64,000 bases of DNA, taken from IMG/VR virus record IMGVR_UViG_2788499951_000002, positions 93,857 to 157,856 of that record. One strand, written 5' to 3'. This DNA comes from a virus (lineage: Duplodnaviria; Caudoviricetes). Below the pieces are notes generated by a model that was not told where the DNA came from, ran no database searches, and was given only the letters and a program-made list of their open reading frames with translations. The first letter of the stretch is position 1; each line of letters starts with the position of its first letter. The translations under genes and the position numbers were made by a program. Of this stretch, positions 44,395 to 47,932 are shown piece after piece.

Positions 44395-45507
44395 TTACTG
44401 ATTGGCAGCGTCTTCAATCACTTCGCCAATCTTATCGATGATCTGGGAATAAGTCAACCCCAGAATTTCATCGATGGTGCCCAGCAGGAGATGCTCCTTG
44501 TCAGGGCGGATGGTGACGTCACCATTACCTCGCAGTGCGAAGCGATTCTTGCCAACCTGCTCACGGAGAACCGTGCGCAGTTCATCCTTGTTGCGGATGG
44601 TGATATCATCCTCATCGCGGACATCGATGTCGAGATCGACACTCTCAGTTGCACCAGAGAGCATCATACCAAGCTCACCCAGTGCACTTTCGAGCATGTT
44701 CTCCTTGTTCTCGATGCCGTACATCACTTCCATCGGATCATATGCCTCGGTCTTGGTGGACAGTTCGACCGGCATCAGGAGACCATTGGCGTCGATGTAC
44801 ATCTCGTCATCACGCTTGACAACCACGAAGTGTTCGACCGGCTCAGTGTCCTTGGCGTTGAACTGTTCCCAGCTGATGGCACATCCGCGTTCGAGTGCAT
44901 CTTCGTCGCTCAGAGTGATCTCAGTGTACTTGGAGCGCTCGAACTCTTCATCAGTCAGGATACCCTCGGTGACCTCGGTGTAGATGCGAGTGAATCGCTT
45001 CTGCTTCGCCACCACGTTGTCCTCATGCTGGGAAGTCTTACCATAGAACCCATAGGACTCTCGATGAGCCATCAGCTCAGAGTGAGGCTGCACGACGCGG
45101 ATGTCACCACGTGCCCAGAGCATGAAGCCAGCAGAGGCTGCCTCGGAACATACCACAGTGATGGTGTGGCGGAACTTATCCATGATGGTGAACAGTTCCA
45201 GCATCAGATCGACACGACCGCCCGGACTGTTGATGTAGATCATCAGAGTTGGCACGCTTTCTGCAAGGCGGTACAGCTCTGCCAGTTCTCGGGTGTTCTC
45301 CTGCGGGGAGTTGAACTCACCACGAAGATGGAGTTCGATGCGATTGTGCTGCTCGTTAGGCACAATGGTCATGAACTGAGGGAGGGGAAACATTGCCATC
45401 GGGTCCATGCTGCCGCGAGGGCGAGAACGAGAATCTACCTCTCCTTCGACCTGCATGGCGGTGGACGAGAAAACGGACGGCTTGATTGCGGAGAAATCGA
45501 GATTCAT
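44395..45507 (-). CDS. ClpP-like (S14) serine peptidase with C-terminal extension
   Basis: IYINSPGG, AASAG (catalytic Ser), LMAH (catalytic His). Confidence 0.85.
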   Translation of the reverse strand: MNLDFSAIKPSVFSSTAMQVEGEVDSRSRPRGSMDPMAMFPLPQFMTIVPNEQHNRIELHLRGEFNSPQENTRELAELYRLAESVPTLMIYINSPGGRVDLMLELFTIMDKFRHTITVVCSEAASAGFMLWARGDIRVVQPHSELMAHRESYGFYGKTSQHEDNVVAKQKRFTRIYTEVTEGILTDEEFERSKYTEITLSDEDALERGCAISWEQFNAKDTEPVEHFVVVKRDDEMYIDANGLLMPVELSTKTEAYDPMEVMYGIENKENMLESALGELGMMLSGATESVDLDIDVRDEDDITIRNKDELRTVLREQVGKNRFALRGNGDVTIRPDKEHLLLGTIDEILGLTYSQIIDKIGEVIEDAANQ

Positions 45508-47012: not shown

Positions 47013-47201
47013 TTAACGTTTGTGTTTGAAGTCACTTTCGTACCAACCGGTGCCCTTGAACTGGGCGCGAGCTGGTGCTGAGATTGTGGTTTCCATGTCG
47101 GAGCCACAGGTTGGACAGGGGATGGTTTTGACGTCCGACTTTACGATCTTCTCGATCTTGGGTTGGTCGCAGTTGTTACAGATGAAATCTCGAATGGGCA
47201 T
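47013..47201 (-). CDS. FmdB-family zinc-ribbon protein
   Basis: MPI.DF.C..C...CPTCGS...FKGTGWY..D. Confidence 0.85.
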   Translation of the reverse strand: MPIRDFICNNCDQPKIEKIVKSDVKTIPCPTCGSDMETTISAPARAQFKGTGWYESDFKHKR

Positions 47202-47249
47202 GGCACATAATCTCCTTAGGACGGGGTCAGTATGTGCCATGTGGATCTA

Positions 47250-47393
47250 TCAGTCAAGCACTTTCTTGTGCTTTTTCTTGCGAGAATAGGACTTCTTCTT
47301 GTCCTTCTCGACTCGCTGTCGGAAGAGCGGGGACTTGACCAAGGCATGCTGGGCGTTGTCTTTGATCTTCCCTTTCTTGTGGTCGTGCTCCAT
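47250..47393 (-). CDS. arfA: alternative ribosome-rescue factor A homolog (47 aa, not in ORF track)
   Basis: [47 protein letters not shown] versus recalled E. coli Arf[27 protein letters not shown]...SY.RK.KH; AGGAG RBS. Confidence 0.88.
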
Positions 47394-47402
47394 CAGCTTC
47401 TC

Positions 47403-47795
47403 CTATGGCAGGTAGTTGATAATGACCGCGATCACCAACGGCACCATGACAGCAGTGATGAACACCCCGAAGTTCTTGACGAACCGGCTGTTATCCCGTG
47501 TCTTGATTGATGCCTCTTCTTGCTTCTTTGTGACTTCGACAACGGCCTTTTCGATCTCACCGAATCGAAGTGTCAGGGTTGAAAGATGCTTTTCGTGCTC
47601 GTGGATCATTTTTGTCACACTGGTCAGAGTCTCCGTGAGACGCGTGATGTCGGCTCGCTGTTGTGCCAAGAGAGCCTGTGTAGCAACCACCTCTTTAAGC
47701 GTGGACGTGATCTCGTCCAGTGTGTCTTTTTGGTGCGTGATCACGCTCTCTACGACCGCAACACGCTCATTGATTTTGTCTGGCTGGTCGCTCAT
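47403..47795 (-). CDS. coiled-coil protein with C-terminal TM (holin/XhlA-like architecture)
   Basis: ERVAVVE coiled coil, terminal hydrophobic helix. Confidence 0.55.
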   Translation of the reverse strand: MSDQPDKINERVAVVESVITHQKDTLDEITSTLKEVVATQALLAQQRADITRLTETLTSVTKMIHEHEKHLSTLTLRFGEIEKAVVEVTKKQEEASIKTRDNSRFVKNFGVFITAVMVPLVIAVIINYLP

Positions 47796-47908: not shown

Positions 47909-47932
47909 AGATCCCCTCCGAAGAGGGGATCT
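47909..47932 (-). terminator. intrinsic terminator hairpin
   Basis: AGATCCCCTC-CGAA-GAGGGGATCT (TTCG loop on - strand). Confidence 0.7.

Follow-up and report, generated by a model that had tools for sequence, protein, structure and literature searches.

A 47-codon gene on the minus strand of a complete phage genome was found to encode a protein which, by its profile and structure-chain matches, is a member of the ArfA family of ribosome-rescue factors. We judge it reasonably likely that this gene, which lies in the 64,000-nucleotide stretch of DNA analysed here (the window), is a minimal functional ArfA that would be always on, dependent on RF2 and free of tmRNA control. Judging from its sequence, the phage probably makes this protein constitutively to free stalled host ribosomes. 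Bacterial ArfA is the textbook example of a backup factor which is silenced by the very system that it backs up. For the phage gene the identity and the design are supported by the analyses presented below, and the function that they point to is plausible.

Genomic context of the arfA-like gene

The phage genome is complete at 157,856 bp, with 595-bp terminal repeats, 51% G+C and 7 tRNA genes. The genes neighbouring arfA in the replication module encode a B-family polymerase, a ClpP-like protease, a MoxR-type ATPase, a VWA/metallopeptidase protein and an HNH protein. The features in and around the gene are as follows:

47250..47393, minus strand: arfA-like gene, 47 codons plus TGA stop (47252-47250), Pfam ArfA match of 59.4 bits
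47400..47404, minus strand: AGGAG ribosome-binding site, 6 nt 5' of the arfA ATG, read from the sequence
47403..47795, minus strand: upstream gene in the same operon, 130 aa, with only weak Pfam matches below cut-off
47013..47201, minus strand: downstream FmdB-type zinc-ribbon gene, 62 aa, real start at 47201
47199..47241, minus strand: hairpin past the arfA stop, perfect stem of 10-11 bp, starting 9 nt after the stop
47913..47926, minus strand: terminator-like hairpin past the VWA/metallopeptidase gene, from a consensus scan only

A 47-codon frame preceded by AGGAG had been proposed in the original prediction, and the coordinates, the ATG (47393-47391), the TGA and the AGGAG were all found at 47250-47393 on the minus strand, giving a product of 47 aa. 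The AGGAG shares bases with the TAG that ends the upstream gene (47405-47403), an arrangement which suggests translational coupling of arfA to that gene, and its GGAG is also kept in three metagenomic contigs carrying the same gene (L005-7). The 130-aa upstream protein appears from its sequence to form a coiled coil with a hydrophobic C-terminal end, and its gene adjoins arfA in L005-7 (90% identity) and in a more distant contig, L011 (36%). The terminator-like hairpin at 47913..47926 probably marks the start of the transcription unit which contains arfA.

The arfA stop is followed by 47 nt and then by the zinc-ribbon gene. The Zn_ribbon_8 Pfam match begins at residue 14 of the longer listed ORF (75 codons) and an AAGGAG lies 10 nt 5' of the ATG at 47201; the encoded protein is 81% identical in L005-7. 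The stem arms of the hairpin at 47199..47241 are CATGGCACAT..ATGTGCCATG, with the AAGGAG site in the loop and the ATG of the zinc-ribbon gene in the 3' arm. The stem is invariant in L005-7 and the loop and spacer have diverged. This hairpin may set zinc-ribbon translation depending on which transcript carries it, and it is overlapped by a promoter-like TTGACT-17-CATACT (47257..47229). Because it is located 3' of the stop, it cannot render the arfA message stop-less.

Identity and residues of the phage protein

We compared the 47-aa protein with profile and structure databases. An HMM search with the ArfA family, which had been suggested as a check, gave a match to Pfam PF03889 over profile positions 1-44 of 44 (E = 2.3e-16, 59.4 bits against a curated cut-off of 25.5 bits), and the same profile gave 57.8 bits for this protein in a search of the whole phage genome. 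Against the PDB, phmmer matched six distinct E. coli ArfA chain sequences (E = 1e-10 to 6.5e-10), to which residues 3-42 align. No NCBIfam model matched the protein, and in PHROGs there was only a weak match of the basic tail to an unnamed family. The original prediction had called the gene unannotated; this holds only in part, as a 94%-identical protein of 47 aa has already been named ArfA by JGI.

The closest well-studied relative is E. coli ArfA (YhdL, PF03889; PDB 5MGP, 5U4I, 5MDV and 5H5U), with about 64% identity over residues 3-42 and 73% (19/26, counted by hand from the alignment) over the N-terminal and RF2-contact region. The two proteins share the N-terminal minidomain, an identical RF2-pairing strand and a basic channel tail. 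The ArfA core motif that had been reported from the first reading is present: PLFRQRVEK is identical to that of E. coli, including the FRQRV of E. coli residues 25-29, and Ile10, Ala17 and Leu18 of the minidomain align to Ile11, Ala18 and Leu19. Pro22 aligns to Pro23, and the counterpart of Glu30 is also kept. In structures of the E. coli protein, residues 25-29 pair with the beta-sheet of RF2 at residues 213-217, Pro23 stacks on A1492/A1493, Ala18 and Ile11 form the core of the RF2-activating minidomain and residues 31-48 fill the mRNA tunnel (PMC5378476).

The C-terminal part is where the phage protein has been altered. Residues 30-47 include 10 Lys/Arg out of 18, which makes this tail more charged than that of E. 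coli, and the protein ends KHKKVLD, with the TGA five codons past the conserved KH. It thus has no hydrophobic tail, as had been claimed, and it covers the equivalent of E. coli residues 1 to about 49. The claim that its stop directly follows the active core also held, since the protein ends just beyond the part which is ordered in E. coli ArfA ribosome structures, where only 46-48 residues were modelled (PMC8012679, PMC5378476). The KGKGS motif is incomplete, with KKKSY in place of the E. coli KKGKGSY. The loop is therefore shortened as originally described; the loss is, however, a 2-residue gap, in effect two glycines, and not the GKG that had been named.

E. coli ArfA without its last 17-18 residues is fully active and a 40-residue form is inactive (PMC8012679); the shortest E. 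coli form with demonstrated activity has about 55 residues. By analogy, the most economical reading is that the phage protein would work like E. coli ArfA minus its last 17 residues. What speaks against the always-on reading is its length of 47 aa, which is shorter than all 148 bacterial copies compared below, together with the two missing residues of the channel loop.

These same features could be used to argue that the peptide is a blocker, which occupies the empty channel or A site of stalled ribosomes or of free 30S subunits, with RF2 not productively activated; the effect would be that tmRNA-SmpB or host ArfA is kept out, or that host translation is damped. Besides the shortened loop and the mere five residues past KH, such an action would be in keeping with the single site which ArfA and SmpB share (PMC8012679) and with the A18T mutant, which separates binding from activation (PMC5378476). 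We regard it as unlikely, given that the best-conserved parts of the phage protein, namely the minidomain and the RF2-pairing strand, serve RF2 activation only, that a basic tail alone would suffice for blocking, and that the KGKGS residues are individually non-essential in E. coli (PMC6299226).

Bacterial arfA genes and their silencing devices

In E. coli, arfA has 72 codons and a hairpin 5' of its stop which leads to termination or RNase III cleavage, so that ArfA is made from a stop-less mRNA and hence tagged by tmRNA (PMC8012679). To this frame, hairpin and hydrophobic tail the window gene has no equivalent. RNA folding and a terminator scan found no terminator or strong hairpin in the window arfA or before its stop, where a 6-bp hairpin (AAGCAC/GUGCUU) at codons 41-46 has no U tract. 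The only strong structure here is the perfect 10-11 bp hairpin located 3' of the stop.

We examined bacterial copies in two samples. The first comprised 80 genomes, mostly Enterobacterales, compiled with a contig profile search and a six-sequence alignment and biased towards that order; the ArfA frames were 54-107 codons long and all had KGKGS. For the likely host group of the phage, the Alteromonadaceae (Pseudoalteromonas and relatives), an even sample of 400 genomes of the class gave ArfA in only 6, and a family-level sample was used instead. In this Pseudoalteromonas family ArfA was present in 67 of 201 genomes, with 68 matches, none of which had the 2-residue gap. KGKGS was therefore kept in 148/148 bacterial copies (80 + 68), every one of which was longer than the 47 aa of the phage protein. 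The Alteromonadaceae proteins resemble it in their N-terminal M.HDH.RG.IKDNA..ALV.S and in their small size (54-82 aa), and differ from it in that KGKGS is intact in all 68 matches.

All nine Alteromonadaceae arfA genes that we folded had a hairpin of 18-22 bp or a terminator with its 5' arm in frame, and the stop codon lay in the hairpin loop or beyond the terminator. The description of the phage gene as pre-truncated is strengthened by this comparison, since an in-frame hairpin or terminator was found in 9/9 folded Alteromonadaceae copies and in the phage copies L010, L011 and L014 described below, and in the window arfA there was none. With neither hairpin nor tail nor intact KGKGS, the phage gene therefore has none of the devices known or suspected to silence arfA.

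We also observed an ssrA-like end (..Y/W-L/Q-x-A/V-A) in 18 of the 30 fetched Alteromonadaceae ArfAs (L112 and L118-L146). Pseudoalteromonas-family ArfAs (L112, L118, L131-L134 and L136-L146) often end in ..E-S/P-Y-L-x-A-A, resembling the LAA of the ssrA tag, and in the six folded genes with an LAA-like end this stretch forms the 5' arm of the 18-22 bp hairpin, with the stop in the loop. The LAA-ended genes of this family may thus be controlled twice, through a stop-less message and through a degron of their own.

ArfA in other phages

We searched for further phage copies by several routes. A word-indexed protein search with the 47-mer gave one candidate and was too insensitive, and a full HMMER scan gave 82 cluster representatives. 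A nucleotide search gave no match among cultured phages, and tblastn at E 1e-3 against 50,697 phage records gave no close match, the only hit being Salmonella chromosomal sequence filed as phage. When tblastn was relaxed to E 5, Pseudoalteromonas phage J2-1 and Pseudomonas phage pf16 were matched. Citromicrobium phage RXM g10 also exceeds the Pfam ArfA cut-off, at 29.6 bits. Our literature searches turned up no work that addresses the function of a phage ArfA or compares phage ArfAs, the only traces being a one-line mention of the RXM gene (PMC8953757) and database annotations. A maximum-likelihood tree of 88 ArfAs had too few columns, and the phage copies were scattered over an unresolved backbone.

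Stop-terminated and in-frame-device designs both occur among phage arfA genes. Those which end at a stop with no structure 5' of it are the window arfA, L005-7, L008, L009, L013, L103, L105 and L106; in L105 (50 aa) there is a terminator, which is located past the stop. A jumbo-phage copy (L010) has a 15-bp terminator inside its 76-codon frame (L010:5130-5164), and L011 (L011:5123-5153) has an in-frame GCCCGC..GCGGGC in its fold, followed by UUUUU running into UAG; the scan called this L011 hairpin on the opposite strand only, the sense-strand terminator being our own reading of the fold. In L014 the hairpin spans the stop. Phage pf16 (KU873925.1; L147:4001-4144) carries an unannotated ArfA-like ORF of 47 aa (MEHDH.., with KGKGSY) between gp199 and gp198, overlapping the 3' end of the opposite-strand gp199, and its stop borders on a possible hairpin of 9 bp which was seen by eye and is absent from the minimum-free-energy fold. 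Since L011 retains an in-frame terminator-like hairpin, deregulation is no general rule in the lineage of the window phage, in which the off-switch appears from these sequences to have been either lost or gained.

The in-frame terminators of L010 and L011 raise the question of whether the window arfA is itself still a tmRNA-controlled backup, its message being cut or terminated in frame by a device that our scans missed, such as the 6-bp hairpin at codons 41-46 or a site for a phage or host endonuclease; in that case the protein would build up only under saturation of trans-translation. That hairpin lies just 5' of the stop, and over the final 60 nt of the frame the window and L005 hardly differ, even at silent sites. 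The hairpin has only 6 pairs, however, with neither a U tract nor a long RNase III stem, and the promoter-like TTGACT-17-CATACT explains the silent-site conservation equally well. In addition, the gene begins 9 nt past the previous stop and ends 47 nt before the next start, so that termination there would cut off the downstream genes. In-frame cleavage of the message by some nuclease is possible, but we consider continued control by tmRNA to be improbable as an account of this gene.

A separate group of short proteins was seen when IMG/VR was scanned with the exact pattern KKGKGSYxRK, which occurs in at least 116 viral contigs. ORFs in 79 of the 80 contigs that were fetched (L149-L228) match the ArfA HMM built here. 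Most of these matches are 35-55 aa long and of the form NPxAKxL..F.P.VV.PKKGKGSY, and some are the N-terminal part of proteins of 150-260 aa which end in ..GQWSARKAQM..YKKAGGGY. Like the window ArfA, the KKGKGSY peptides are phage-encoded and short (35-60 aa), with the same basic tail; most of them lack the RF2-activating N-terminal H.KG.IKDNA minidomain, whereas the core of the window ArfA is complete. The window ArfA is therefore not unique and is one case of a wider, little-studied phenomenon.

Conservation and gene order

The three contigs L005-7 encode a 94%-identical ArfA, flanked on either side by the same neighbour as in the window. Comparison of the window with L005 gave 12 synonymous and 3 non-synonymous codon changes (dN/dS = 0.046), and the gene is under strong purifying selection. 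One difference in L005, which weighs against the always-on reading, is a Ser which replaces the Pro that stacks on A1492/A1493.

The gene order in the window is VWA, the 130-aa gene and ArfA, then further downstream ClpP, a 173-aa gene and polB. L011 keeps all six genes in this order, and three of them (ArfA, ClpP and the 173-aa gene) are present in L008, where ClpP directly follows ArfA. ArfA has 50 residues in L011 and 49 in L008, and the other shared genes are about 36-56% identical. The synteny of arfA is thus retained in phages whose DNA polymerase (polB) is only about 43% identical. The ClpP-like protease gene travels with ArfA (window 44395-45507; L008:842-1669; L011:6571-7455), which it follows after 10 nt in L008 and after about 1.4-1.7 kb in L011 and the window. 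Among cultured phages, the Alishewanella phages Slickus01 and Slicko01 are nearest, with 44% polymerase identity, and a direct search of the Slickus01 genome found no ArfA.

That the gene has no phage role and is a passenger, namely a piece of host arfA which was captured recently and is now decaying, could be argued from a product shorter than every bacterial copy examined and from its absence from the closest cultured relatives (Slickus01, and no close match among the 50,697 phage records), but is very hard to credit given the dN/dS of 0.046, the kept synteny across phages with about 43% polB identity, the intact ribosome-binding site and start and the full-length Pfam match.

Proposed function

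No SmpB or RF-1-domain gene was found in the 157,856-bp phage genome. A phage tmRNA near the tRNA cluster was considered and ruled out, as ARAGORN, Rfam and an RF00023 search gave only an echo of a tRNA T-arm. With no phage tmRNA, SmpB or RF-1-domain gene, any action of the phage ArfA must use host RF2. The always-on reading would require the protein to fit the RF2 of its host, likely one of the Alteromonadaceae.

Under the always-on reading, arfA would be translated after infection from an ordinary polycistronic message and the product released at its own UGA, and because of this release it would avoid the tmRNA tagging which silences bacterial ArfA. [quoted passage not shown] The predicted outcome is tag-free, tmRNA-independent recycling of ribosomes when broken mRNAs are abundant, as might occur during phage-induced decay of host mRNA, heavy processing of phage transcripts or attack by mRNA-cleaving defence toxins. 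We infer from this scheme the physiological benefits that had been suggested for the gene, namely toxin resistance, tolerance of mRNA decay and less ssrA tagging. As ArfA acts only on ribosomes whose mRNA channel is empty (PMC4245945), a ribosome stalled by tRNA cleavage would come within its reach only after an additional cut in the mRNA, and ArfA alone would not relieve stalls from tRNA loss.

The genes found near phage arfA were also considered. The window phage has an Rnl1-type RNA ligase near its tRNA cluster, outside the window (G000:C1:82057-82734). In L105 (L105:5574-7821) Rnl1 and PNKP lie 1.3-2.7 kb from the 50-aa ArfA, and in L106 (L106:5134-5580) an HD_4 gene, called from a weak Pfam match, overlaps the 46-aa ArfA. 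The Rnl1/PNKP, HD_4 and tRNA context agrees with the always-on reading and lends it weak thematic support. Tentatively, and with somewhat more doubt than confidence, we suggest a broader scenario in which phages captured arfA repeatedly and several lineages stripped it of the in-frame hairpin, the hydrophobic or ssrA-like tail and two loop residues, and so of all means by which a cell silences it, turning it into an always-on recycler within a kit for translation maintenance and counter-defence.

If this broader scenario is true, the window protein would be the smallest natural RF2-activating peptide, standing alongside phage tRNAs, Rnl1/PNKP RNA repair and ClpP, and such phages would keep translating while tmRNA is saturated and mRNA is being shredded by nucleases of the host or of its defences. 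A conserved viral ArfA freed from control would mean that phages manipulate ribosome rescue directly. A minimal RF2 activator of 47 residues would be useful in structural and synthetic work, and the gene would give a simple handle on whether phage growth is held back by tmRNA saturation when host mRNA decays or when abortive-infection toxins cleave mRNA.

Comparison with known rescue factors

Among phages, an annotated counterpart of the window gene is found in Pseudoalteromonas phage J2-1 (MF988720.1, ATN93434.1), where a 51-aa gene is annotated as 'alternative ribosome-rescue factor A'. Like the window gene it is phage-borne, ends at its own stop (which overlaps the next start), has no significant RNA structure and lacks the GKG residues (RDKTKYRRKKKHK). 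It differs in belonging to another phage lineage (recorded as Ounavirinae) and has 57% identity to the window protein over 28 aligned residues only. The J2-1 annotation was made by similarity alone, and we found no published analysis of it.

A bacterial parallel in design is ArfT of Francisella tularensis, which at 40 aa is a small, basic and release-factor-dependent protein with an ordinary stop, and whose gene, like the window arfA, has no terminator or RNase III device (PMC6299226). Unlike the phage protein, ArfT does not belong to PF03889, works with RF1 or RF2 and is chromosomal. ArfT offers a bacterial precedent for a tiny, stop-terminated rescue factor of the kind that we propose for this phage.
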